Source of the DNA: a virus
DNA length: 41,911 nucleotides
Direction: 5' to 3' (one strand)
Virus record (IMG/VR): IMGVR_UViG_3300029893_000022
Location: 1 to 41,911 of that record
Positions 2,416-41,911 of this stretch are shown here, piece by piece (position 1 is the stretch's first letter; every line of letters begins with the position of its first letter). The notes beneath the pieces were generated by a model. That model was not told the DNA's origin. It saw only the letters and a program-made list of their open reading frames with translations, and ran no database searches. Made by a program: the position numbers and the translations under genes.

Positions 2416-2790
2416 CTAGTCCTCAGGAGGCAACAGCCCCTCCGCTTTTGCCCTTTCACGGGTCATATAGACCTCGTGAGCAGCGAAATTAATTCGCTCT
2501 TTTTTGTCCGGTCTCCCGGACAAGCCTTCGAAGAATTTCTGAGTTGGCTTTTTGGGGAAGTAGTTATTCCCCAGACCCAACTCATTTTTTAAGTTTTTCG
2601 AAGTTATCACCCGCACCGGATACGGGACGTTTGCCAGACCCGCCTGCGAAGAACAGAACTTACAAACGTGAACATACGTCTGAGACTCATTGTCCCAGGC
2701 CTCGTTGTTTGTCTCATCTCTGCACATTGTGCAGGGGGCCCATGTCCAGCCCCCCCTGTCATCATACTTTCTCACCCATTCGGCCTTCAC
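2416..2790 (-). CDS. Cys-rich (zinc-ribbon-like) hypothetical protein
   Basis: Likely GTG start at 2790 with AGGAGA 5 nt upstream (the longer listed ORF 2416..3006 runs through copy 2 of the RNA element); 124 aa with C-x2-C ... C-x2-C (CTMC, CKFC). Confidence 0.5.
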   Translation of the reverse strand: MKAEWVRKYDDRGGWTWAPCTMCRDETNNEAWDNESQTYVHVCKFCSSQAGLANVPYPVRVITSKNLKNELGLGNNYFPKKPTQKFFEGLSGRPDKKERINFAAHEVYMTRERAKAEGLLPPED

Positions 2791-2929
2791 TTTGTTCTCC
2801 TGCCCGCCTATGACCCGACGGGCGGGGTCTAGTGATTGATTGCCCATGAGCGCCGCGGCATCTCTGCCGCACCGGACTTCCACCGGTCGCCCACTCCGAG
2901 AGCGGGCGGGCCTTGCGGACTGGGAGGGG
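2791..2929 (-). ncRNA. candidate structured intercistronic RNA element, copy 2
   Basis: Starts right after the stop of gene 2930..3148. Same three-hairpin core as copy 1; the first stem carries compensatory changes (CGCCCGCUC/GAGUGGGCG with a G-U pair, plus 2888-2908) and the second keeps the stem with a GAGA tetraloop (plus 2855-2870). Confidence 0.35.
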
Positions 2930-3148
2930 CTACACAGGCTCGAAGAGCAACTCCCGTTCCCCCTCCACTGTTCCCCAGAAGCGACCGTTTGTCGCCTCGT
3001 CAACAACGATTTTTCCGACCGTCGGGTCGTACTCGATCATCATCTCAACAATTTCCCCCAGCCTGCCTACCTCCAGATACCCCCCCCAACGGGGGGTAAG
3101 GATTCTAACCATCCGCTCGTCATTTTCATAGTCCTTAATAGTAGTCAT
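2930..3148 (-). CDS. hypothetical protein (72 aa)
   Basis: GGAGGAGAcagaaATG RBS; first cistron of the minus-strand small-gene operon. Confidence 0.5.
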   Translation of the reverse strand: MTTIKDYENDERMVRILTPRWGGYLEVGRLGEIVEMMIEYDPTVGKIVVDEATNGRFWGTVEGERELLFEPV

Positions 3149-3212
3149 TTCTGTCTCCTCCCGGCCTTTTCCCCGACCGGTGGGGGGTTAGGTTGGTTGA
3201 CTGACTGTCTAT

Positions 3213-3240
3213 AGTGTAACACGTGTAGTACGAATGTCAA
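3213..3240 (-). promoter_or_regulatory. putative promoter of the minus-strand small-gene operon
   Basis: Minus-strand TTGACA (plus 3235-3240), 16-bp spacer, TACACT (plus 3213-3218), about 60 nt upstream of the start at 3148. Confidence 0.3.
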
Positions 3241-3404
3241 GCTGGTTTATGGAACATTAATCAAACTCTAATCTTTCTCGCTGGTATAATCCAACCGTGA
3301 TTACCGATGCCTGCTACTACCTGTACCTAGCCTGGTGTCTCTCCTGGCTCTATGTCCTGGCTCTGCATGCCGGTTTATGACGCGCCGCGTCATAGACCAC
3401 TCCA

Positions 3405-3466
3405 CTGTACATGTAGTGTATAATTGCACACATTTGTGCTATAATAAATGGCACAAATGTGCCATT
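3405..3466 (+). promoter_or_regulatory. promoter with overlapping palindromic operator-like sites
   Basis: TATAAT at 3419-3424 and TGcTATAAT at 3437-3445; inverted repeats TACATGTA (3408-3415), GCACA-catt-TGTGC (3426-3439) and TGGCACA-aa-TGTGCCA (3449-3464) end 2 nt before the ATG at 3467. Confidence 0.35.
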
Positions 3467-3976
3467 ATGACCGATAACAGTAACAGCAACAGCCTGCTCG
3501 CAAACGATCCTAACGAGCTACAGCGCATCCTACAGTCTCTCAGCATGCTACAACTGCGCTGGTTGATCGCGCGAACAGAGGTTGATACCGACAAGGAAGC
3601 CTGCGAGCGGATCGGTATCGCCTATCACAGCTGCATGCGCTGGCCTAACAGGAACGACATCCATCGGGCATTGCGCCTGATGATGTACGACAAACTGGAC
3701 GCAGCGCGTGAGCTGCTCAAACGGTCTGTGGTCGAGGCAGTGGAGGAGCTGCGCCGTGAGCTGGACGATCCATCACCGCGGATACGCCAGCGTGCAGCCA
3801 TCGAGATACTGGATCGGACGATGGGGCGTGCAGTCCAGCCGTCCATCATGATAACTGCCGGTGTGGATGACCTGTTACGTCGGATATGGGGCGACGACGG
3901 CGAGCCAGCACCTGGGCCGGCTGGGGATGTGATAGATGGAGAGATGACGGATGCGCCGGTGTCTGATGATGGTTAA
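3467..3976 (+). CDS. HTH DNA-binding protein (terminase small subunit-like or transcriptional regulator)
   Basis: Start taken at ATG 3467 because the longer listed ORF from 3335 runs through the promoter and operators. HTH-like segment DKEACERIGIAYHSCMRW; later IRQRAAIEILDRTMG resembles the conserved C-terminal helix of P27-type small terminases; acidic tail. No obvious RBS. Confidence 0.5.
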   Translation: MTDNSNSNSLLANDPNELQRILQSLSMLQLRWLIARTEVDTDKEACERIGIAYHSCMRWPNRNDIHRALRLMMYDKLDAARELLKRSVVEAVEELRRELDDPSPRIRQRAAIEILDRTMGRAVQPSIMITAGVDDLLRRIWGDDGEPAPGPAGDVIDGEMTDAPVSDDG

Positions 3977-3979
3977 GAT

Positions 3980-4766
3980 AAGGTCGCTTATCGCGAGCGT
4001 AATGTTTTGAGGTTTTGTAGGTGATCGCAACGCATATTGACATACCCCCACATCTGGGGGTATGTCGCGTTATATGGGGGTTGCATCCAGTAGTTGGTGG
4101 TGTATCAGTAGATGCCGGAGTGTATCAGATGTATCAAGATGCCGGCTGATTGTATCAGTGTATCATTGGATTGTATCATTGTATCAACCCGTACATGTGG
4201 GTGGTAGTGTCTCGTACGGTGTACATACCCCCATATATAGGGGTATTGAGAAGCAATAAATTGTATCAGTGTATCATCTATCTATCATAGGTTAAGCAAC
4301 CAAGGCAACCAAGGCAACCAAGGCAACCAGAGCAACCCCTATATATAGCCATCAATGCCGTATATGGATACTACCCCCCATATATGGGGGTATAATAATT
4401 GATGATTTTTAATCTTCAATTAATGATTAAGCAACCTTTTTAAGCAACCTTAAGCAACCTGTAATGTATCTATATAATACTTGTACAATACCTAAACATT
4501 GATTATATGTATGTATAGGTTGCTTAAGTTGCCTTGGTTGCTTAAGTTGCCTTGGTTGCTCTGGTTGCTTAACCTCGTAAGCTTTAATATTTCATAACCA
4601 TACCAGTATATCAATCACTATTGCATTTTAGGGCTACTTTATGCCATTTTAGGGGTGTTTTAAGCCAAAAAATGCCCTAAATGGGCATCTCAGATTGTTT
4701 CCGGGCCGGCCAGGTCAGCCCGAAAAGGTGTCGAGGTTAAGCAACCAAGGCAACCGGTGCAACCTT
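3980..4766. repeat. iteron-rich AT-rich noncoding region (candidate replication origin or packaging/partition site)
   Basis: TGTATCA repeats (4101-4187, 4261-4277); C/G-tract palindromes (4043-4062, 4225-4246, 4372-4392); GCAACCAAG tandem repeats (4296-4337) with an inverted array (4518-4573); TAAGCAACC x3 (4428-4460); AT-rich core (about 4393-4430); GCAACC cluster at 4738-4764. Confidence 0.5.
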
Positions 4767-4768
4767 AT

Positions 4769-5053
4769 TTATTGATCGTACCGGTGCATGATTTCGAGAA
4801 ACTGTTCTACACTGTACACAATCGCTGCAGGTGTATCATCCCCAAACTGCGACCACAACGCCAGCTCTCTTTCGGTCAGCTTGCCCCCAGGCGACTTGAT
4901 CTCCAGTGCCACCCAGCGGCCAGACCTGGACAAACAAAACGCATCCGGCGCACCATCCCCCTGACGATACGTGTCTACCCATACATAGCCGGCCCGCCGT
5001 GCTGCATCCCGTATCGCTGCGTGGTTAGCGTCTACACGTGCGCTGTATCTCAT
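4769..5053 (-). CDS. VRR-NUC domain nuclease
   Basis: GAPDAFCLSRSGRWVALEIKSPGGKLTERELALW matches the PD-(D/E)xK core of VRR-NUC (G.PD ... ALEIK ... GKLT..E..W); GAGGA RBS; start overlaps the upstream stop (ATGA). Confidence 0.6.
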   Translation of the reverse strand: MRYSARVDANHAAIRDAARRAGYVWVDTYRQGDGAPDAFCLSRSGRWVALEIKSPGGKLTERELALWSQFGDDTPAAIVYSVEQFLEIMHRYDQ

Positions 5054-6014: not shown

Positions 6015-6227
6015 CTATCTGGGCAATACATATCGGTACCCCCGTTTTTCTCCTTCAGGGATAAGCCAGCCGCTGGCAACCAGATTACGGGCGATATGAA
6101 GAGCAGTGTGTCTTTTAACGCGGAGAATCCGGCGAATATCTCGATTGGTGATAAATCCTTGAGTTTTGATTTCCTCCAGCAGGCATTCACACGCTCTGCT
6201 CGCGGTAGCAGCCAGCGTTTTCGCCAC
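6015..6227 (-). CDS. small winged-helix DNA-binding protein (putative)
   Basis: ITNRDIRRILRVKRHTALHIARNLVASGWL is HTH-like; GTG start with weak RBS. The overlapping listed ORF 5939..6460 looks less protein-like. Confidence 0.35.
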   Translation of the reverse strand: MAKTLAATASRACECLLEEIKTQGFITNRDIRRILRVKRHTALHIARNLVASGWLIPEGEKRGYRYVLPR

Positions 6228-6275
6228 CAGGCGACCAGTTCCGAGAATGGCAAGTTGCGATAGACTCGTTCAGTA

Positions 6276-6524
6276 TCACGGCCTTCCATGTACGTTTCCA
6301 GATTGTTCACCAGGCGAAACAGGAATACTTCTCGCTTCACACCATGACGAAGCAATTCGGATGAAAATCTTAATTGGTTCAGCACTCGAACCATTGTTTG
6401 CCATTTCCGGCGCGGTCGCCGCTGCAGTGCTGGCGGACTGGGAGGTCTGACGGCAAGCAAAAGCGAACCAAAACAGAGCAGCGAACATCACGGCAATCAG
6501 GATCAGGACAATCCAGCGCTTCAT
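6276..6524 (-). CDS. small membrane or lipoprotein-like protein
   Basis: ATG at 6524 overlaps the upstream stop (ATGA) and uses GGAGGA from the upstream gene end; MKRWIVLILIAVMFAALFWFAFAC is a signal/TM segment ending in Cys. Confidence 0.4.
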   Translation of the reverse strand: MKRWIVLILIAVMFAALFWFAFACRQTSQSASTAAATAPEMANNGSSAEPIKIFIRIASSWCEARSIPVSPGEQSGNVHGRP

Positions 6525-7123
6525 GGCCGTCCTCCGTTGGAACCCTGGCAATACCCGCAGGAGCAGGCAGGGCGTTGACCGGTCTTAACGGCGGCAACCA
6601 GTCGGTCGAGCTTGGCGTTGATCTTCTCGGCGACGGTATCGCTGTGAGAAACGCCGATAACGCGCATCTCGCCGGTGTCGCGCGCCAGATATAGCACATG
6701 GGCGCGCTGGTATCCGGCGAAGTGCATATACGCCTGCACCTGAAAGAAGACGCGGTTAGGCAGTCGGGGCGGTTCAGGGAGCCATTTGGCGCATTCGATG
6801 GTCTTTATCTCTAACAAATCTCCTTCCACCTCGCCATCGGGATGTCCCTGCACCAGACCATCGTACAAAACGATCGGATTCGCTGCGCGATAAAGACCCA
6901 TCTCGATCAGACGAGCGACGAGCGCCTCTTCCAGAGCATACCCCATTGCATCTTTCAGGCGCTCCCGGGTGCTGTGAGGAACCCCGTGTGTGTAAATGTC
7001 GTAGATGACTCGTTCACACCCGCCGATAGATGACAGACCGATATAGTTACGACGTTCTTGGTGGCGGCTGCTCACGCGTGATGTGAAGTCAATAATAGCG
7101 GACTGCAATTGGATAGATAGCAT
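6521..7123 (-). CDS. Cas4-like PD-(D/E)xK nuclease with Cys cluster
   Basis: AAGGAGC RBS; DGEVEGDLLEIKT (D ... E.K); one N-terminal Cys (GGCER) plus C-terminal CSCGYC, the pattern of Fe-S-containing Cas4/RecB-family nucleases. Confidence 0.55.
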   Translation of the reverse strand: MLSIQLQSAIIDFTSRVSSRHQERRNYIGLSSIGGCERVIYDIYTHGVPHSTRERLKDAMGYALEEALVARLIEMGLYRAANPIVLYDGLVQGHPDGEVEGDLLEIKTIECAKWLPEPPRLPNRVFFQVQAYMHFAGYQRAHVLYLARDTGEMRVIGVSHSDTVAEKINAKLDRLVAAVKTGQRPACSCGYCQGSNGGRP

Positions 7124-7135
7124 ATAGAAGCTCCT

Positions 7136-7279
7136 TTACAGGTCGAAAGCCAAATCTATGGCGTGAAGATGGAGTTTGGAGAACAGCGCACGGCGTTGGG
7201 TGGGTTCATCCCGCTTGCGTTTAATATGTCCCCAGTTGCGTACCGGCAACTCCCGCCGGCAACGACTACATGTTTTCAT
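7136..7279 (-). CDS. small basic Cys-containing peptide (47 aa)
   Basis: Not in the ORF track. ATG at 7279 overlaps the methyltransferase stop (ATGA); MKTCSRCRRELPVRNWGHIKRKRDEPTQRR...; lies just downstream of repeat copy R1, whose start codon is ACG instead of ATG. Confidence 0.35.
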   Translation of the reverse strand: MKTCSRCRRELPVRNWGHIKRKRDEPTQRRALFSKLHLHAIDLAFDL

Positions 7280-8001
7280 TCTGCGCCTCTCGTTCCAGCT
7301 CGTCTATGGCGTCCTGCGGCACATGATAGCTCACGCAGCATCCACCGTCCAATGTATTCTGTGTATGCTGGTGGGATCGCTTCCGCCAGTTCGCCGCGCG
7401 TCATCCAGTTTATTCCCAATGCGCTCCGCCCGACCGCCAGCGAAAAGTTATGGCCGATAATCGTTGCCATCTTAGATGGATCACTGAAGTATTTATTGAG
7501 TCTTTCAAATCCGACTTTCTCGCGTGTGCATCCCGCAGGGTAAAAATAGATGGAAGGGCTGGTTTCGAATCGCCTGTGTCTATGTGTTTTCAGCCCAAAC
7601 ATCGTTCCACATAGTACGAGCGAATCCTTGCTCAGCCCGTCTTCTCCAACCGCTTCGACGATGTTTTCGATGATGTAGGGTTTACCAGTTGCAATCAGCG
7701 TTTTGCGAACATTCTTTATCAGGCGTGGATAGACTGTGACATCTACTATTCCCTTCATGCGACTGTATCCCTGACATGGAGGGCTGGCGTGGATGATGTC
7801 GTACTCTGACCCGTGTTCCGTCAGGTAATCCAGGGCATCGCCCTGGATGAACCTGAACGGATAGTGTGGCTGCGGATGGATGTCAATCCCTGTAATGTCT
7901 ATAATTCCCGCATGATAATAGCCCATCGCCGCGCCGCCGGCCCCGCAGAACAGATCGAGCAATCTTATTTTGTTGTTCTCTTGCCTCTCGTTCCAGCTCA
8001 T
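7276..8001 (-). CDS. DNA (cytosine-5)-methyltransferase
   Basis: Motif I DLFCGAGGAAMGY, motif IV SPPCQGYS, ENV-like IENIV; 241 aa (compact). Start codon and AGGA RBS lie inside repeat copy R2. Confidence 0.75.
   Translation of the reverse strand: MSWNERQENNKIRLLDLFCGAGGAAMGYYHAGIIDITGIDIHPQPHYPFRFIQGDALDYLTEHGSEYDIIHASPPCQGYSRMKGIVDVTVYPRLIKNVRKTLIATGKPYIIENIVEAVGEDGLSKDSLVLCGTMFGLKTHRHRRFETSPSIYFYPAGCTREKVGFERLNKYFSDPSKMATIIGHNFSLAVGRSALGINWMTRGELAEAIPPAYTEYIGRWMLRELSCAAGRHRRAGTRGAE
7285..7324 (-). repeat. conserved gene-start module, copy R1
   Basis: gcctctcgttccagctcgtctatggcgtcctgcggcacat; about 92% identical to R2 and R3; the start-codon position reads ACG. Confidence 0.8.
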
Positions 8002-8022
8002 CTATGGCATCCTGTGGCACAT
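7983..8022 (-). repeat. conserved gene-start module, copy R2 (contains the methyltransferase start)
   Basis: gcctctcgttccagctcatctatggcatcctgtggcacat; minus strand reads cacAGGAtgccatagATGAGCTGGAACGAGAG, encoding MSWNER. Confidence 0.8.
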
Positions 8023-8062
8023 TTGCTCGCGCCTATCACTCAGCTTGAGTTCCATTCAGCAA

Positions 8063-8425
8063 CTATTTGTTCGCTTCATCCTTTTCTATCATCCACTGTT
8101 TAACCTCCATCAGAAACTTGACTTCTTCTCTGGCAGCTAAGACTGCCCGATCGCGATTGTCTTCCGCGCGAAAATAGTCTTCAAACGGCGTATATTTGCA
8201 CCAGACGAAGCCTGTGTATAGCTTAACTGGACACCATTTGCATCTATCGTCAAGATACTTTGCGCAGAGCGAACACGTATTACTCCCGCCATTGTAAATG
8301 TACTCAATGGACGGGTCATTGTAGGCATCTGCGATATATTACCATTTTTGTATTGCCTGGTCAATGTCACCAGGTTCCATGTCATAAGCCACTAATTTGC
8401 TTTGTATGATGATCTCCAGCTTCAT
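8063..8425 (-). pseudogene. Cys-rich zinc-ribbon-like gene interrupted by an in-frame TAA
   Basis: AGGAGGA RBS and ATG at 8425; 28 codons, then TAA (8341-8339), then 91 in-frame codons with no start codon (YIADAYNDPSIEY...NTCSLCAKYLDDRCKWCP...) to TAG at 8065. The listed ORF 8137..8385 is an out-of-frame shadow. Confidence 0.35.
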
Positions 8426-8660
8426 TTTGATCCTCCTGTTCTCGTTCCAGCTCATCTATGGCGTCCTGTGGCACATAATAGCCATGCTCACGTAATGTCC
8501 TGAGAAACTCCGCCGTCTCGCCTGGTGTATCAAAGTCGCGGCTGTCTCCATCATAGGGGCCACCCGCAAGCCATTTAACGTGTACCACATAGACGCCGTC
8601 CGAATAGTAGCAGTACACGTCCGATCTGAAGTTATCGCTGCTAAATCTGCAGTACGCCAT
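8382..8660 (-). CDS. hypothetical protein (92 aa)
   Basis: GGAGAG RBS and ATG at 8660; 3-prime end reads through repeat R3 and overlaps the next gene. Confidence 0.5.
   Translation of the reverse strand: MAYCRFSSDNFRSDVYCYYSDGVYVVHVKWLAGGPYDGDSRDFDTPGETAEFLRTLREHGYYVPQDAIDELEREQEDQNEAGDHHTKQISGL
8441..8476 (-). repeat. conserved gene-start module, copy R3
   Basis: ctcgttccagctcatctatggcgtcctgtggcacat; its ATG (8455) is in frame with the ATG at 8425 of the Cys-rich gene, giving MSWNENRRIK-MKLEII. Confidence 0.8.
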
Positions 8661-8663
8661 CTG

Positions 8664-9011
8664 TCACTCTCCTATCAATTCCAACTGCCCACGCTCGATC
8701 ATCCTGCGGCGCCGCGTCTGCGCGGCATTGTGCCGATGATGTGCAACATCATATCGCAGATGGCATCTCTGGCACATCGCGCGTAGGTTCGACGGATCGT
8801 TGTTGTGCGTGTCGTGATCCAGATGCGCCACGGTCAGGATCACCCGCCCGCGGAATTGCTGCGCCGGTTGATGATCCATCTCCTCGCAGCGTCCACTGTG
8901 ATCTATCCCGCACTCGCCCGTGCATTCGCACTGCCCGCCGGCGCGGTCGTGTCGGATCGAGAGCGATATTTCTCGCCAGTTTTCGGGATAGTTGCGCATG
9001 TCAATCGGCAT
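8664..9011 (-). CDS. HNH endonuclease
   Basis: CECTGEC ... LTVAHLDHDTHNNDPSNLRAMCQRCHLRYD: Cys pairs flanking the H-N-H core. Confidence 0.75.
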   Translation of the reverse strand: MPIDMRNYPENWREISLSIRHDRAGGQCECTGECGIDHSGRCEEMDHQPAQQFRGRVILTVAHLDHDTHNNDPSNLRAMCQRCHLRYDVAHHRHNAAQTRRRRMIERGQLELIGE

Positions 9012-9186
9012 ATCCTGTTATTCCTCTTCTTCGCTGCCGTCAAACAACGACATCTGCTTCACATGCCCGTCCAATGGCAAACAGTGTGGGCTAAACCACA
9101 ATCGTTCTTTGGTGCGGTTCTCGCTATTTGCTGTCTTGCCATTGCTGTTGCCATAGGAACGCCCGGCAGTCCAGGAGTTTTATAAT

Positions 9187-10242
9187 CTAATGAATTGTCT
9201 TCTGTAGTGACCATCGTGATCCGTTCCGATAGACGATATTCTTCTCTGCCAGGACTTCCAGGGAGCGCATGATCGTTCCCTTATTTCGTCCTGTCACTTC
9301 CGATAGTTCTAGCAGTGTTACTCCGCCTTCGTAGCTGCGGATGATGTTTATCAGTTCGCGTTGCCCATCTGATAGTACTTCTTCCGGCTTTGCGATCTGC
9401 CAGCTTGTGGTTGTCAGGTCGAAACGCAGATCGAGCATTTGCTCCTCGATGTCGCGTCCAGAGATTGCCAGCTTTGCGCCTGTCTTCCCCGGTTCTTTAT
9501 ATAGCCCCAAGATGGTATCTGCTACCGCGCCTTTGGATGTTGATCCGATGATGTCGCTAATCGGATCGTCGTTTCCGGTGAGCAGTCCGCGTTTACGATG
9601 GTGATCTATGACGATGATAGATACACCCTCGGAAGTTGCTTCCTGGAGGGGTCCCATGACGTGTGTGACTGCGCCCATGTCGTTCCAGTCGCGGACGTGG
9701 AATGCACGGGTGAGAGTATCTATGATTAACAGGGAATAACCGGCGTCTCTTGCGAATGTTGCAAACGTGCTTGAGTTTTTGAATAGCAATTGAAAATCTC
9801 TGGAGAATACTACGTTTAGATTTCTTTGTGCCTCTGCCGTCCAGTTTTGTTTGTGTTGTCGTTCGCGGAAACGGCGTTGGCCATCTTCGAGCGCGCAGTA
9901 GAATACTTTTCCGGGCGTTACCTTGCGCCCTAGAAAGTAGCCATCCGAACAGATCGCCAGTGCCAGCTCCATTGCGAACCAGGATTTGCCTTTTTTGGGA
10001 GGTCCCGCGAGCAGTGTAAATCCGGCGGGGATGATTTCTTCCACCACCCAGGCCGATTCGGGGAATTCCATATTGTAGATTTCATCACCGCGCCATATAC
10101 GTGGCTCATATTTCGGCTTGCGCTTGGGCGCAGCTTCCGAGGCCGGCGGCTCCGGCATTGATGATTCCGGCGTCAATATCCGTTGATCGTTGCCGGATAA
10201 CCGATCAATCAGGTTTTTGAGGGAATCCATATCATCATTCAT
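9187..10242 (-). CDS. RecA-like (AAA_25/RepA-type) ATPase with C-terminal winged helix; putative replicative helicase or initiator
   Basis: Walker A LLAGPPKKGKSWFAMELA; Walker B SLLIIDTL and IIVIDHHRK; C-terminal HTH-like LLELSEVTGRNKGTIMRSLEVL. Confidence 0.7.
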   Translation of the reverse strand: MNDDMDSLKNLIDRLSGNDQRILTPESSMPEPPASEAAPKRKPKYEPRIWRGDEIYNMEFPESAWVVEEIIPAGFTLLAGPPKKGKSWFAMELALAICSDGYFLGRKVTPGKVFYCALEDGQRRFRERQHKQNWTAEAQRNLNVVFSRDFQLLFKNSSTFATFARDAGYSLLIIDTLTRAFHVRDWNDMGAVTHVMGPLQEATSEGVSIIVIDHHRKRGLLTGNDDPISDIIGSTSKGAVADTILGLYKEPGKTGAKLAISGRDIEEQMLDLRFDLTTTSWQIAKPEEVLSDGQRELINIIRSYEGGVTLLELSEVTGRNKGTIMRSLEVLAEKNIVYRNGSRWSLQKTIH

Positions 10243-35059: not shown

Positions 35060-35610
35060 GTCGCTCATTGTATATGGGTTACTAATTGACATGGCTTGCA
35101 CGGAGTTTTTGGGTTACTTCCATCGCTTAGCTCGCTTCTCTGTAATGGGTTACTTTGTTAGCTTGGCTCGCTTACGCTAGATGGGTTACTCCTCTCGAAT
35201 GGCTCGCTTCGTTCCGTTGGGTTACTTGCTGTGCTTGGCTCGCTTCTGCGACATGGGTCACTCAACTCATATGGCTCACTTCCTCAGTTTGGGTTACTCA
35301 CTGAGCTTGGCTCGCTTGTATATCATGGGTTACTCCTTGAGACTGGCTCGCTTGGGTAGCATGGGTTACTCATAATCGGTGGCTCGCTTCATCACCCTGG
35401 GTTACTCGCCAGCAATGGCTCGCTTACCCACTTTGGGTTACTTGCTTCGCTTGGCTCGCTTTCTTTTGATGGGTTACTTCACCCTCTTGGCTCGCTTTCT
35501 TAGCTTGGGTTACTTGCCGAGTTTGGCTCGCTTGTATATCATGGGTTACTCACTAACACTGGCTCGCTTCCGTCTTCTGGGTTACTCCGCGGTAATGGCT
35601 CGATTGGGCT
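35060..35610. repeat. tandem array A of a 36-bp dimeric repeat (18-bp half-units TGGGTTACT+N9 and TGGCTCGCTT+N8), about 15 units
   Basis: Read directly: the two cores alternate with strict 18-bp spacing; variable segments are pyrimidine-rich on the plus strand; downstream (3-prime) of minus-strand gene 35619..36311. Confidence 0.85.
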
Positions 35611-35618
35611 TGCCGAAA

Positions 35619-36311
35619 TTATATCTCATCATACCACCCAAACTCTTCCGGCGTATATAGGCGATGATGATTGTTCTCTGCCACAATCCAGGGATCGCTA
35701 ACAGGCAATCCCTCTAACTTGCGCCATACCAGCCACAGGTGCGATAACCACACTTTTATCATCTTGCGCATGGCGGCGTTATGCTTGTGCAGCTTTGTCC
35801 AATCTTCGCGGCTTTCGTACTCCTCGCGCGCCTTGTCGTAAATGTCGCGATAGGGACTGCCGGAGCGCAGGAAGGATGAACCGATCAAATAGCAGGTTGT
35901 CTTGAGGCGAATGTTGTAATGGAGTTTCTCGCCCTTGACCGGCTTCTCGCGTTCTCCGTTGATGACGGCATAACCTGCATACCGCCAAAGGGCGCTGATG
36001 GTATCGGCGCGGTGGATGTCAATCATCACCACCGTTTTCAGAGCAAGTGTCTTTCCGACGCCTCTCACGCGGCACATATATTCCACAATCGGAAAATCAT
36101 CCGCCAAATCTTTGATGGATGAATCCAGCTCATCTTCCAACAACTGGAATTTGGTCATCCACTGCTCGATATAATGGCGGTACGTTGGATTATCAGTACC
36201 GCGGTCTATTGCGGACAGGCGATTGCTGAATTGAATGCGTGCTTTCTGGATGATTCGGTCTCGCAGATCAACCAACGCACGGGCTAAAACTGAAATAGAT
36301 GGGTCTGTCAT
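35619..36311 (-). CDS. IS110-family recombinase C-terminal domain-like protein (coiled coil plus helix-hairpin-helix), lacking the N-terminal DEDD catalytic domain
   Basis: AAGGAGAG RBS and ATG at 36311; VRGVGKTLALKTVVMIDIHRADTISALWRYAGYAV and HNAAMRKMIKVWLSHLWLVWRK resemble the conserved C-terminal (Transposase_20-type) region of IS110/IS116/IS902 proteins; only 230 aa; no DEDD motifs. Confidence 0.6.
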   Translation of the reverse strand: MTDPSISVLARALVDLRDRIIQKARIQFSNRLSAIDRGTDNPTYRHYIEQWMTKFQLLEDELDSSIKDLADDFPIVEYMCRVRGVGKTLALKTVVMIDIHRADTISALWRYAGYAVINGEREKPVKGEKLHYNIRLKTTCYLIGSSFLRSGSPYRDIYDKAREEYESREDWTKLHKHNAAMRKMIKVWLSHLWLVWRKLEGLPVSDPWIVAENNHHRLYTPEEFGWYDEI

Positions 36312-36361: not shown

Positions 36362-37215
36362 TTGCTTCCCAATTCCGGCTCGCTCTCAACGAATGGACTG
36401 CTCTTCCTTAATGGCTCGCTCTTTTTATCTGGGTTTCTGCATCGAAATAGCTCGCTCCTCTCGTCTGGATTGATTGTTCATTGTGGCTCGCTTATGCTCC
36501 ATGGGTTACTTTTCGATCCTGGCTCGCTTTCCGTCTCTGGGTTACTTAGAGATGCTGGCTCGCTTGCGCGGGATGGGTTACTCACGTTGCCTGGCTCGCT
36601 TCATTATCCTGGGTTACTTGACCTTTGTGGCTCGCTTACTTGGTTTTGGTTACTCGTCAATTATGGCTCGCTTCTCGCATATGGGTTACTCCGTTATTCT
36701 GGCTCGCTTGCGCAGGTTGGGTTACTCACTGCGTATGGCTCGCTTACTTGCCATGGGTTACTCACCGCGTCTGGCTCGCTTGCATATCCTGGGTTACTCC
36801 TGAACTTTGGCTCGCTTCAGCATCGTGGGTTACTCTCCGCGTCTGGCTCGATTGCAGTAGTTGGGTTGCTTTTACAGTTCGGCTCGCTTCCCGCACGTGG
36901 GTTATGGGTTACTCATCTTCAGTGGCTCGCTTTCGGTTTCTGGGTTACTTTCGCCTACTGGCTCGCTTTCTGACTCTGGATTACTTGTATGCAATGGCTC
37001 GCTTACACATCGTGGGTTACTCTCCGTGTCTGGCTCGCTTGCATATCATGGGTTACTCCTAAACAATGAATGGCTCGCTTGCGCGGGATGGATTACTCAC
37101 GTTGCCTGGCTCGCTTCTCCAGCTTGGGTTACTCAAGTTGCCTGGCTCGCTTCGTCATCATGGGTTACTTTTCAAGGGTGGCTCGCTTTATTCATTCAGA
37201 ATGGCTCTTCCATTC
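36362..37215. repeat. tandem array B of the same 36-bp dimeric repeat, about 23 units
   Basis: Same cores and orientation as array A; includes segmental duplications (for example GGCTCGCTTGCGCGGGATGGgTTACTCACGTTGCCTGGCTCGCTT at about 36563 and 37071); upstream (5-prime) of gene 35619..36311. Confidence 0.85.
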
Positions 37216-38556: not shown

Positions 38557-38780
38557 CAGTAAGCCTCTAATCCGAGATAATGAATAATTGTCAAGGCGGC
38601 TTCATCTGCCGAATTACAATAGGCGCAATAGTAATCTTTATGCCCAAAATTTATTTCGGTGTCACTGAGTGCAATGAATAATCCTTGATATTGACCGCGT
38701 GGATAGGGCAGGAAGAACAATAATTCCTTTGATTCCCGCGCAGCCCATTCAAGCAATGCGATCATCTCTTCAATATTCAT
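38556..38780 (-). CDS. hypothetical protein
   Basis: 74-aa ORF. Confidence 0.45.
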   Translation of the reverse strand: MNIEEMIALLEWAARESKELLFFLPYPRGQYQGLFIALSDTEINFGHKDYYCAYCNSADEAALTIIHYLGLEAY

Positions 38781-39298
38781 ATCTCACCACAATCCAAAAC
38801 TTTATAACGGTGTATCACTGCTCCTGCCTCATCCATCTCTACAGGCGATAAATCTTTACCGCGCTGGTCTGGTCTGAGATAAGGCAGATCAATTGACCAC
38901 ACTTCTATTGCAGCAGCCGCGATGGACAGCGGAATATTTCCTATGACAATCCTGCCATCAATTTGAGACACATCTTCTACATGGTCAATGACTTTGCAGG
39001 AGGTATATCCGCGTTGTCGTAGCCACTCAATTGCTCCGGCATGGCGAGAGACAATGATGTAATAATCTGAAGAATGATTCGCCAAAACAAACTGGAGTAC
39101 ATTCTTCTCAATTGCTTCATCCACCAATGCTTCTGGATAACCATCCATAAGCGCATAGTGGCGAGCTTTGTCTTTCCAGCCTTCTTTCTCAAGATCAGAA
39201 AGAGATGGTTCTCGTGAAAGATACCAGGATTCTATGGCAGCCAACCTATAATTGCCTGCATCAACATATTGTTCAATTAGTTTATATGTGTCGTTCAT
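38777..39298 (-). CDS. hypothetical protein (173 aa)
   Basis: AGGAGAAAGA RBS; no family recognised. Confidence 0.5.
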   Translation of the reverse strand: MNDTYKLIEQYVDAGNYRLAAIESWYLSREPSLSDLEKEGWKDKARHYALMDGYPEALVDEAIEKNVLQFVLANHSSDYYIIVSRHAGAIEWLRQRGYTSCKVIDHVEDVSQIDGRIVIGNIPLSIAAAAIEVWSIDLPYLRPDQRGKDLSPVEMDEAGAVIHRYKVLDCGEI

Positions 39299-39606: not shown

Positions 39607-39728
39607 TAATAGCCTCCAAGCCATGCAACGACGGCATGTAACATTGCCGGATGCGCTTCCAGGAATAGATAGAAGGCATACAACAAGACGAAGAAAGCCG
39701 CAAGTAGGATTGTCTGATGGTCATTCAT
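39606..39728 (-). CDS. small membrane peptide (40 aa)
   Basis: Not in the ORF track. GGAGGAAATATA-ATG; MNDHQTILLAAFFVLLYAFYLFLEAHPAMLHAVVAWLGGY. Confidence 0.35.
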   Translation of the reverse strand: MNDHQTILLAAFFVLLYAFYLFLEAHPAMLHAVVAWLGGY

Positions 39729-40876
39729 TATATTTCCTCCGGTGGAGGTGAATCGTCCATTAGAAATTGTTGTCCTTCGGCGAGGAGAGCTTCATTGTAT
39801 GCTGCCTGAGCCTCCTTGTAGGCCATTGGATCAGGTTGATAATCGCCGCCGCTATCCTGAGTTGGTTTGAGCCAATCCAGCGCGGCCAGGATCATAGGAT
39901 CGGGAACATCCTTCATGCTGTCCTGACCGAACACATACCTTTGAAAGGTATGGCGTTTGTCATCGTCCTGGAAAATCTTATCCAGGAGCATTGCTACCAG
40001 GCCGCGTTGCTTATTGGATGCCGTCTTTTCCTTGTATTTTCCGGCTTTGATGGCGATGGCTTCCACCAATGCGGCGGGGGGGAGTGGGCGTTCAAATTTG
40101 CCGGGCTTGGGTTTCGGTGCCGATGTCTCGAAGCCGAGTTCTTGCATGATTTCATTTTCGCTTCGTCTTTCGGCTTCGGCGAATGCAACATCCACAGATG
40201 GAGCATCTATGAATTCTCCCTCGATCTCCTTCTCGGCCTGTTCTATAATGGATGCGTCATTTGGGTCGAGGTATCCCCAACGCATGATGAGGAGGCGGAG
40301 AACAGTCTTGCGCTCCATCGCCTCCGGGTCTTTACGCCAGATGCTCTGTTCATTGGAATAGTTGTTCGGATTATATCTCTTGGCGTGGGCATGGATTTGT
40401 TCGACGGTCATGTAAAGGGTTTTTCTGAACCCATTGACCATCTCGAAGGCGCCCAGCCATCCGATCACCTTGTCGCCTGTGCGCGAACCGCCGATCGTGT
40501 GCAATCCGGTGATGCGATCTTCGATCACTTCTTCCCCCTCGTAAATCTTACCGACATTGATATATCGGTACTGGCCGGTTCTGACGGCCATATCGTAAAA
40601 GCCTTTGTATCCAGGCCAGAAAACAGCTTTACCTTTGATCGGAACGATATAGGCCTGTCGTTTCGAGGCATCCACAGACAGACGCAAGGTGGCGGCACGC
40701 ATGGCTGCCACAAAAATTGATTGCGGCGTACACTGTTGGAGCTTACCGGTTGGATCGTTCGCCACGGTAAGCAAAACCGATGAAATGTAGGAGGCGGCGT
40801 TGTCCTTTCCCAGGACTTCTGCGAACTGAGACATCACTGCCTCAGATCGCATATACAACTCAATTTCGTTGCCCAT
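39728..40876 (-). CDS. RecT-like single-strand annealing protein (putative)
   Basis: AAGGAGAG RBS; 382 aa; N-terminal half resembles RecT/Red-beta-type annealing proteins by pattern only; acidic C-terminal tail. Confidence 0.5.
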   Translation of the reverse strand: MGNEIELYMRSEAVMSQFAEVLGKDNAASYISSVLLTVANDPTGKLQQCTPQSIFVAAMRAATLRLSVDASKRQAYIVPIKGKAVFWPGYKGFYDMAVRTGQYRYINVGKIYEGEEVIEDRITGLHTIGGSRTGDKVIGWLGAFEMVNGFRKTLYMTVEQIHAHAKRYNPNNYSNEQSIWRKDPEAMERKTVLRLLIMRWGYLDPNDASIIEQAEKEIEGEFIDAPSVDVAFAEAERRSENEIMQELGFETSAPKPKPGKFERPLPPAALVEAIAIKAGKYKEKTASNKQRGLVAMLLDKIFQDDDKRHTFQRYVFGQDSMKDVPDPMILAALDWLKPTQDSGGDYQPDPMAYKEAQAAYNEALLAEGQQFLMDDSPPPEEI

Positions 40877-41183: not shown

Positions 41184-41775
41184 TCTCTGCCTCTTCCTGC
41201 ATTGCTTTCGCCACTAATAAGCGCAAGTACTGGGACACATTCCCTGGAGACTTGCGTCGCAGAAACTCAATCTGTTCAGTAGTCATCCTTACATTGACTA
41301 TCTGCATCGGTTTATTTTCCATCGTTCCTACCTTATCCAGCCCCACAAATACAGTTTCAGAGAGGAATGATGATGAATGCTGAACATTCTCAATAATAGA
41401 AAGTGTCTCGACCAGCCGCGGATCGCGGCGGCTGTTGGGCAAGTTACGGGCTGCCCGATACAGATACTCTGGGTCGCCGATGGCGATCAGAGCCTCGATC
41501 AGCCGCGGATCGTAGCGGCTGTCGGGTAATTCAATGGCTGCTCGATATAGCCAGATAGCTTTACCAATGGCGATCAACGCCTCTAATAGTCGCTGATCGT
41601 ATCGGTCGTCGGGGAGGTCAACGATAGCCTGGTATATCCAGGTAGCATTACCAGTGCCGATTAGCGCATCCAGTATACGCGGGTCGTATTGGCCATATGG
41701 CAACTCGCGAGCTGCCCAGTATAGCTCCTCGGCGACGCCAGATGCAATTAAGCTATCAATATCAAGGGTGTCCAT
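41152..41775 (-). CDS. tandem-repeat protein (27-aa repeats) with in-frame C-terminal RHH-like segment
   Basis: AGGAGAGG RBS before ATG 41775; five repeats of the YDPRLxEALIAIGxxxxLYRAAxxLPxxRYD type; the last 56 codons (from the internal ATG at 41322, preceded by AGGTAGGA) read MENKPMQIVNVRMTTEQIEFLRRKSPGNVSQYLRLLVAKAM, RHH-like. Confidence 0.6.
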   Translation of the reverse strand: MDTLDIDSLIASGVAEELYWAARELPYGQYDPRILDALIGTGNATWIYQAIVDLPDDRYDQRLLEALIAIGKAIWLYRAAIELPDSRYDPRLIEALIAIGDPEYLYRAARNLPNSRRDPRLVETLSIIENVQHSSSFLSETVFVGLDKVGTMENKPMQIVNVRMTTEQIEFLRRKSPGNVSQYLRLLVAKAMQEEAENERLGNLRSS

Positions 41776-41911
41776 GTTCCTCTCCTTTCATTAGTGCCTT
41801 GACCAGCCGCGGATCATAGCGGCTGTTGGGCAAGTTACGGGCTGCCCGATACAGATACTCTGGGTCGCCGATGGCGATCAGAGCCTCGATCAGCCGCGGA
41901 TCGTAGCGGTC
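41762..41911 (-). CDS. C-terminal end of a tandem-repeat protein, 5-prime part beyond the window end
   Basis: Minus-strand frame open from 41911, reading DRYDPRLIEALIAIGDPEYLYRAARNLPNSRYDPRLVKALMKGEEHGHP then TGA at 41764-41762; same frame (mod 3) as the partial gene at 1..598. Confidence 0.5.
   Translation of the reverse strand, partial: DRYDPRLIEALIAIGDPEYLYRAARNLPNSRYDPRLVKALMKGEEHGHP

Follow-up and report, generated by a model that had tools for sequence, protein, structure and literature searches.

What are three nearly identical short sequences doing at the boundaries of consecutive genes in a phage genome? The question is raised by IMG/VR record IMGVR_UViG_3300029893_000022, an uncultivated phage whose large terminase shares no more than about 35% identity with its counterparts in known phages; its 41,911 nucleotides (nt; positions 1 to 41,911) were analysed as a whole and are called the window below. 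A repeat search of the window located the copies, R1, R2 and R3, as direct repeats on the minus strand within positions 7273-8482, where R2 and R1 bracket a gene for a C5 cytosine methyltransferase. An initial annotation had put the copies at more than 90% identity, which our alignments bear out (R1/R2, 92.5% over 40 nt; R2/R3, 97% over 36 nt; R1/R3, 94% over 36 nt). The core is 35 nt long (GTGCC...CGAGA), or 37-43 nt with its extensions: the 2 nt upstream, AT, are common to all three copies, 8 nt upstream (GCTATYAT) are common to R1 (to 7330) and R3 (to 8482), and 3 nt downstream (GGC) are common to R1 and R2. Two copies of one genome share at most 23 nt without interruption. The central 23-nt pattern GCCATAGAYGAGCTGGAACGAGA, allowing up to three mismatches, matched three times compared with 0.00 in 100 shuffles, and the pattern search found no further copies elsewhere in the 41.9-kb window.

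The reading frame of the repeat points to its source. The window copies differ at four core positions, and all four are third codon positions that are synonymous in the frame encoding VPQDAIDELERE (the VPQD frame). The same differences are non-synonymous in the frame beginning MSWNE, where the initial annotation had placed the first codons of three genes, and one of them turns the proposed ATG into ACG. Across six core variants, from the window and its relatives, seven of nine variable sites fall at third codon positions when read in the VPQD frame (binomial probability ~0.008, our own calculation). The VPQD frame is that of P92, a gene of 92 amino acids (aa) that reads through R3 as ..REHGYYVPQDAIDELEREQEDQNEAGDHHTKQISGL up to its stop codon, R3 itself encoding YYVPQDAIDELERE. 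In this frame R2 has two stop codons just upstream, R1 reads YHVPQDAIDELEREAQNENM and then a stop, and the methyltransferase crosses R1 out of frame, ending ..LSCAAGRHRRAGTRGAE. Because the repeat keeps the frame of P92, and because R2 is preceded by stops and R1 is out of frame, R3 is the native 3' end of P92 whereas R1 and R2 are orphans. Comparing the frames thus shows the copies to be derivatives of P92 coding sequence, R3 being the presumptive functional original. The claim that the copies also form the 3' ends of upstream genes holds for R3, which ends P92, but fails for R2: the stop codon of the preceding gene, encoding a Cys-rich protein, lies at 8065-8063, 42 nt before the core.

P92 belongs to a small family, with only four clusters of homologues in a large protein database, and a tblastn search of phage records with P92 found no match. 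Its N-terminal signature, M[AS]YCRFSSDNF, is kept in all distant loci that we recovered, seven from IMG/VR and GTDB and 16 from metagenomes. Nearly all of these loci also preserve G[YF]xVPxxAIxxL at the C-terminus, with an acidic tail behind it that runs into the start of the next gene, and homologues only 28-38% identical retain both elements. Orphan copies of the P92 3' end were found in none of the 23 distant loci. We therefore rejected the repeat as a general feature of the family and regard it as a lineage-specific accident rather than a built-in system. In one such locus (L010, a Roseateles metagenome-assembled genome), the P92 homologue is followed after a few hundred bases by a large open reading frame (ORF; 6877-8409) that begins MTLRFGSVCSGIEAAS.. 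and is C5-methyltransferase-like by appearance, so methyltransferase cargo behind this anchor gene may recur.

Close relatives of the window differ exactly at the copies, as a comparison of assembled contigs shows. Relatives were recovered by exact or near-exact protein look-ups and have flanks 93-100% identical to the window; L021 and L022 (NCBI GCA_020724785.1) are the window itself and were not counted as independent genomes. Other searches added little. A distant-mode DNA search of INPHARED matched only unrelated mycobacteriophage methyltransferases, a DNA search of complete E. coli genomes gave no match, a degenerate PQDAIDELER pattern was matched neither in IMG/VR nor in the JGI metagenome contig set, and a recombination exonuclease encoded downstream of R1 and the Cys-rich protein had no close relatives in IMG/VR. 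To describe junctions, we named the left flanks A (body of P92), B (end of the Cys-rich gene plus the 42-nt spacer) and C (end of the methyltransferase), and the right flanks x (start of the Cys-rich gene), y (start of the methyltransferase) and z (start of a 47-aa ORF).

Five arrangements emerged. The window (T1) runs from P92 through the Cys-rich gene, the methyltransferase and the 47-aa ORF to the exonuclease. In L015 and L016 (T2), the Cys-rich gene leads through one copy into the 47-aa ORF, and the methyltransferase is absent exactly between the positions of R2 and R1. In L014 (T3), P92 leads through one copy into the 47-aa ORF, without the Cys-rich gene or the methyltransferase; P92 there remains an intact 80-aa ORF ending ..ELEREVQNENM, which is completed by the R1-side right flank. 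L017 and L020 (T4) join the B flank through a diverged copy, R', to an intact gene for DruA (E 2.6e-100), where the window carries the methyltransferase. R' differs from the core at 6 of 35 bases and reads VPQDAIDETEREARNNWIQPN, then a stop, in the P92 frame. Lastly, L001 and L002 (T5) have the Cys-rich gene followed by a small ORF and none of the other cassettes. The initial annotation had proposed that the copies mark cassette boundaries where recombination acts, and the single copies of L014-L016 and the DruA gene of L017 and L020 support this: cassette content between the copies varies among related genomes.

The same comparison suggests how some of these arrangements are related. On this evidence, what separates T1 from T2 is the methyltransferase, lost or gained between two copies. 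A 3' remnant of DruA, 94% identical to the intact gene of L017, lies downstream of the exonuclease in the window, and its junction is common to the window, L014, L015 and L016 (aligned through 6184). T1, T2 and T3 therefore go back to a single event that replaced the 5' part of DruA and that separates the window arrangement from that of L017; the remnant marks the non-homologous right edge of this replacement. Given this common junction, the intact DruA of L017 and the Cys-rich gene upstream in T4, the simplest account of T3 is deletion of the stretch from the P92 copy to the downstream one. Because R2 and R' diverge from core position 3 onward, the left crossover separating the window from L017 cannot be placed within the core; it lies in or to the left of the shared B flank. 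Three joins appear illegitimate from their sequences: the right edge of the DruA replacement, the C/R1 joint, which falls inside the non-conserved tail of the methyltransferase, and the B/R joint, 42 nt past a stop codon.

Table 1. Repeat copies, genes and junctions at the P92 locus and elsewhere in the window.
Feature	Position	Strand	Remarks
P92	8382..8660	(-)	92 aa, unknown function (phrog_13573); N-terminus MAYCRFSSDNF; anchor gene
R3	core 8440-8474; full 8440..8482	(-)	Native copy; core plus 8-nt 5' extension GCTATTAT
Cys-rich gene (cassette 1)	8063..8425	(-)	ATG 8425, 6 nt after AGGAGG (8437-8432)
B flank	8021..8062	(-)	42-nt spacer between Cys-rich stop and R2 core; unique junction with repeat
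R2	core 7986-8020; full 7986..8022	(-)	Orphan copy; core plus AT
C5 cytosine methyltransferase (cassette 2)	7276..8001	(-)	Orphan enzyme, 241 aa; nearest homologues 56-59% identical
R1	core 7288-7322; full 7288..7330	(-)	Orphan copy; core plus GCTATCAT
47-aa ORF	7136..7279	(-)	MKTCSRC..; ATG 7279; first gene of the z block
Recombination exonuclease	6521..7123	(-)	RecE/Cas4-like (YqaJ-like); in block following R1
DruA 3' remnant	6184..6415	(-)	94% identical to L017, where DruA is intact
HNH endonuclease gene	8664..9011	(-)	Directly upstream of P92
RecT-family single-strand annealing protein	39728..40876	(-)	PF03837, E 9.4e-34
Junction A-R-x			Window, L001, L002, L017, L018-L020
Junction B-R-y			Window, L018, L019
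Junction C-R-z			Window, L003
Junction A-R-z			L014
Junction B-R-z			L015, L016
Junction B-R'-DruA			L017, L020

We consider it probable, at roughly 80%, that the orphan copies are scars derived from P92 that now serve as substrates for cassette gain and loss by short-homology recombination. In this family, the P92 tail overlaps the Shine-Dalgarno (SD) sequence and start codon of the gene behind it, here at the head of a hypervariable accessory locus that has variously held the Cys-rich gene, the C5 methyltransferase, the 47-aa ORF with the RecE-like exonuclease, and DruA. In a first step, unequal or illegitimate crossovers between phages with different cargo would have left the retained block, whether incoming or resident, with a short piece of the P92 3' end ahead of it. 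R1, R2 and R' would be such scars, and the piece kept would also hold the SD sequence of the downstream gene. The synonymous pattern, clearest in R', is consistent with scars that were still coding parts of different P92 alleles when they diverged. Past the core, similarity continues among the x, y and z flanks (..CARAAT[G/A]A..), with ATG or ATA at the same relative place in each, which fits the idea that each flank was once a junction between a P92 tail and a next gene.

In a second step, these scars of 35-43 nt and 92-97% identity would recombine with one another. Crossing R2 with R1 would remove the methyltransferase, and crossing R3 with R1 would remove the Cys-rich gene and the methyltransferase together and rebuild an intact P92. 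Cassettes would be added by the reverse reaction, in which an excised circle inserts or a co-infecting relative supplies the sequence by exchange. The minimum homology for Red-type recombination is ~30 bp (PMC2327257), and the 35-nt core, or 37-43 nt with extensions, is at or above it. Phage recombinases of the Rad52-like type promote exchange even where homology is short and diverged (PMC3945230). The window encodes both a predicted RecT single-strand annealing protein and a predicted partner exonuclease of the RecE/Cas4 type (phrog_434, RecE-like, and phrog_1990, Cas4-domain; E about 1e-11), and the phage's own pair probably catalyses the exchange. Formation of the scars by unequal or illegitimate crossover, the direction of each event and the dependence on RecT are what we infer here, beyond the observed differences among relatives.

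Several observations weigh against this explanation. Recombination is deduced from comparing assembled sequences, and the direction of each event from parsimony. All relatives come from a few metagenome projects. The RecT and exonuclease genes are not adjacent in this genome, and their activities are predicted. The single copies of L014, L015 and L016 are not one-crossover hybrids of the window copies: their combinations of single-nucleotide polymorphisms (SNPs) are not simple R2/R1 or R3/R1 chimeras, which implies either that the parents carried slightly different alleles or that gene conversion took place. The boundaries are also closer together than chance joins would suggest. The B/R boundary is identical for the very different cores of R2 and R', the C/R1 boundary is only 8 nt away, and random illegitimate joins would not be expected to cluster in this way unless selection or a break hot-spot were at work. 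Survivorship may account for the clustering: long repeats are soon lost by deletion, and the start region of the downstream gene has to survive. A break hot-spot near ..AT/GTGCC, with the neighbouring HNH gene involved in the breaks, is a speculative alternative.

Another reading would treat the P92 tail as an integrase-free docking site, at which the population stacks and sheds defence and counter-defence genes such as the C5 methyltransferase, DruA and the exonuclease. Such a site would be fed by excised circles, each made up of a cassette and a single copy, or by breaks at the core's fixed 5' edge, in a system that is integron-like but based on homologous recombination. The reuse of one identical B/R boundary with two core alleles hints at such a site, and the lack of orphan copies in the 23 other loci bearing P92 argues against a dedicated system; we think it improbable.

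Still less probable is nuclease-initiated or site-specific capture, in which a double-strand break at the fixed 5' edge of the core (..AT/GTGCC), perhaps made by the adjacent HNH endonuclease, would be repaired by annealing on one side and an illegitimate join on the other. It would explain why two independent left boundaries fall within 8 nt of each other and why the B/R boundary is the same for two different core alleles, and the HNH gene does lie directly upstream of P92. That gene is present in all arrangement types that cover its position (L001, L014, L017, L018 and the window). It thus lacks the presence/absence polymorphism among relatives that marks a homing endonuclease, whose gene comes and goes with the mobile segment. 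Orphan 3'-end copies occur in 0 of 23 distant P92-family loci, and survivorship can explain the clustering.

The view taken in the initial annotation, that the repeat is a conserved translation-initiation module supplying a weak AGGA ribosome-binding site, the start codon and the first codons (MSWNE) to three genes, fares worse again. It is at its best for the methyltransferase: ATG 8001 in R2 is in frame, is the annotated start and has AGGA 8 nt upstream. Starting inside a copy is plausible for this gene only. Its 24 homologues begin M[KR]LLDLF and end 8-14 residues past IGRxLL, and none carries an MSWNE extension. The window has ATA (7968-7966) at the position of their start codon, so that the gene probably borrows ATG 8001 as its start. 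Relative to these homologues it has gained 11 N-terminal residues from R2 and ~10-15 C-terminal residues from R1, and its TGA overlaps the ATG of the next ORF (ATGA). Both extensions are best annotated as read from scars and not as native sequence.

For the other two genes the module fails. The Cys-rich gene was said to start in R3, but that codon, ATG 8455, is not conserved: the R3 copy of L001 and L002 reads ..ATAGACGAG.. and has ACG in its place. In L001 and L017 the gene is called from ATGAAGCTG, equivalent to window position 8425, behind AGGAGG. R1 does have ACG at the proposed start, as had been noted, with a usable ATG downstream at 7279, from which the 47-aa ORF begins; its SD sequence, GAGAGG, lies partly within the R1 core and partly past its 3' end. 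The Cys-rich gene and the 47-aa ORF thus have their own SD sequence and ATG, 8-14 nt past the core (14 nt for the former and 8 nt for the latter; the ancestral methyltransferase start lies 17 nt past it). The variation that is synonymous in the other frame stands against a translational role as well.

It is very unlikely that the single-copy junctions are assembly chimeras formed at a collapsed repeat, with no real cassette variation behind them. Such artefacts might be expected, since the informative contigs measure only 1.2-2.0 kb and were assembled from short metagenomic reads. Copies of one genome share no more than 23 exact bases, below the usual assembly k-mer size. The B-R-z junction is identical in two independent samples, one of which (3300038436) holds both T2 (B-R-z) and T4 (B-R'-DruA), and the A-R-z-type variant of P92 (P0161) is recorded on three contigs. 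The SNP combinations of the single copies cannot arise by a single switch, and the 29.6-kb L017 contig carries a different cassette altogether. Together, these features make misassembly unlikely.

The least credible proposal is that the repeat adds a peptide tag, VPQDAIDELERE, to three proteins, two of them by programmed frameshifting: its frame is conserved in all copies, but that frame is closed in R2 by the two upstream stops, R1 is out of frame with a methyltransferase whose homologues lack any such tail and stop soon after IGRxLL, a slippery site is absent, and no stimulatory RNA structure was predicted (z-scores -0.6 to 0.4).

The copies lack other signals that might have suggested a function. 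RNA folding of the three copies gave z-scores of 0.39, -0.56 and 0.41, indicating no structure, and the only Rfam match lay outside the copies (E 0.2). A promoter scan of 6900-9300 found five weak sites, against 2.4 +/- 1.5 in shuffles, none of them common to the three copies; the only promoter-like site touching a copy, at 7351-7323, meets the left edge of R1. There were no terminator-like sites on the minus strand at the copies and no inverted repeats within or between them. Target-site duplication in place was rejected, as the SNPs follow the coding frame and 35-43 nt is too long.

How does this locus compare with known repeat-bounded cassettes? In T4-type phages, the repeats of promoter-early stem-loop (PeSL) cassettes separate the non-essential genes of a hypervariable region; where one phage has a gene between two copies, a close relative has just one copy, and recombination between flanking copies has been proposed to excise a re-insertable circle (Arbiol et al. 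2010, PMC2839356; PMC4122927). Here too, genes flanked by two copies give way to a single copy in relatives (L014, L015 and L016). A PeSL is an intergenic motif of ~100 bp combining a sigma-70 promoter, a stem-loop terminator and an SD sequence, with ~50 copies per genome (PMC2839356; PMC4122927), whereas our repeat is 35-43 nt long, has three copies, derives from the coding 3' end of one gene and has neither a shared promoter nor a stem-loop. Lambdoid phages exchange modules at short shared sequences (Martinsohn et al. 2008, PMC2327257; De Paepe et al. 2014, PMC3945230), using Rad52-like recombinases (Red-beta/RecT/Erf) that need ~30 bp and tolerate divergence (PMC2327257; PMC3945230). The likeness is close, in that modules exchange at short homologies and one junction may be homologous and the other illegitimate. 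Lambdoid cases are mostly inferred from homology 'shoulders' between phages; here, by contrast, the repeats stand in tandem within one genome, homology would also drive intragenomic gain and loss of cassettes, and the population variants are directly visible.

Two further systems resemble the locus at first sight. The start-associated sequences (SAS) and extended SAS (ESAS) of Cluster K mycobacteriophages have a 13-bp consensus, GGGATAGGAGCCC, lie 3-7 bp from gene starts in at least 10 copies per genome and have a proposed translational role (Pope et al. 2011, PMC3203893). They are what the translation-module interpretation resembles, and, like our repeat, they are asymmetric, sit just upstream of several non-structural genes and overlap upstream gene ends. 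A search of the window for the consensus with up to two mismatches gave 0 matches. Unlike SAS, the core ends 8-17 nt before the real starts, its variation tracks the frame of the upstream gene and there are three copies only. Integron attC cassettes, also reported in phages (PMC9892861), have the same layout: behind a fixed anchor, single-gene cassettes stand in tandem, each with a copy of a recombination sequence at its border. An attC site is an imperfect palindrome that folds as a hairpin and needs IntI; our repeat has no inverted-repeat structure, and no integrase domain was found among 20 ORFs scanned against Pfam, which cover part of the window's ORFs. In sum, the locus works like PeSL shuffling and like the short boundary homologies of lambdoid phages, but fails the definition of a PeSL and is neither SAS nor attC.

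L001 and L017 carry intact versions of the Cys-rich gene, of 118 aa and 120 aa respectively, and the window copy is a nonsense allele, in which an in-frame TAA at 8341-8339 (AAA in L001, CAA in L017) splits it into 28 aa and 90 aa. Upstream of the HNH gene, a 51-aa ORF at 9059-9214 (-) is a remnant of a D12-class (Dam) methyltransferase that is intact in L001 (363 aa, 2498-3589); ~895 nt of this region are deleted in the window, and L014 lacks a further 91 nt (window 9127-9037). Of the two methyltransferases, L001 has only Dam, the window only the C5 enzyme and L014 none. DruA (Druantia DUF4338) is both intact and solitary in L017 (10622-11815) and in L020, and a lone phage DruA is unusual. 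In L017 it is followed by a paralogue of the 47-aa ORF.

Elsewhere in the window, two long arrays with a 36-nt period (35091-35620 and 36411-37205) alternate TGGGTTACT and TGGCTCGCTT with variable spacers of ~8 nt. Together they comprise roughly 35 units and flank an ORF at 35619..36311(-); they could be binding-site arrays, possibly partition- or centromere-like, or a coding repeat. The interval 3976-4769, between divergent genes, contains GCAACCAAG 9-mers in inverted blocks (4289-4337, 4516-4575 and 4734-4764) and three palindromes, ACATACCCCCAnATnTGGGGGTAT, at 4040, 4223 and 4370, and looks like an origin or operator region. An 87-nt tandem repeat at 8-523 and 41355-41909 runs off both window ends, which suggests that the genome is circular or terminally redundant and that the repeat crosses the junction. 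A protein with a Csx16/Cas_VVA1548 domain is encoded at 38777-39298 (-) (Pfam E 5e-17; PADLOC Csx16 E 4e-18).

The P92 locus is a clear but ordinary example of phage genome shuffling. Its value lies in being an unusually clean natural snapshot of accessory-gene gain and loss, with five arrangements at 93-100% backbone identity. In two variant arrangements, the crossover maps to a 35-nt sequence of known origin, the 3' end of a neighbouring gene. The cargo genes, which encode two different orphan methyltransferases, a recombination exonuclease and DruA, are of the kind associated with defence or counter-defence. These findings bear on whether phage mosaicism has an illegitimate or a short-homology origin, and suggest a two-step route in which an illegitimate join leaves a scar that then becomes a homologous hot-spot.

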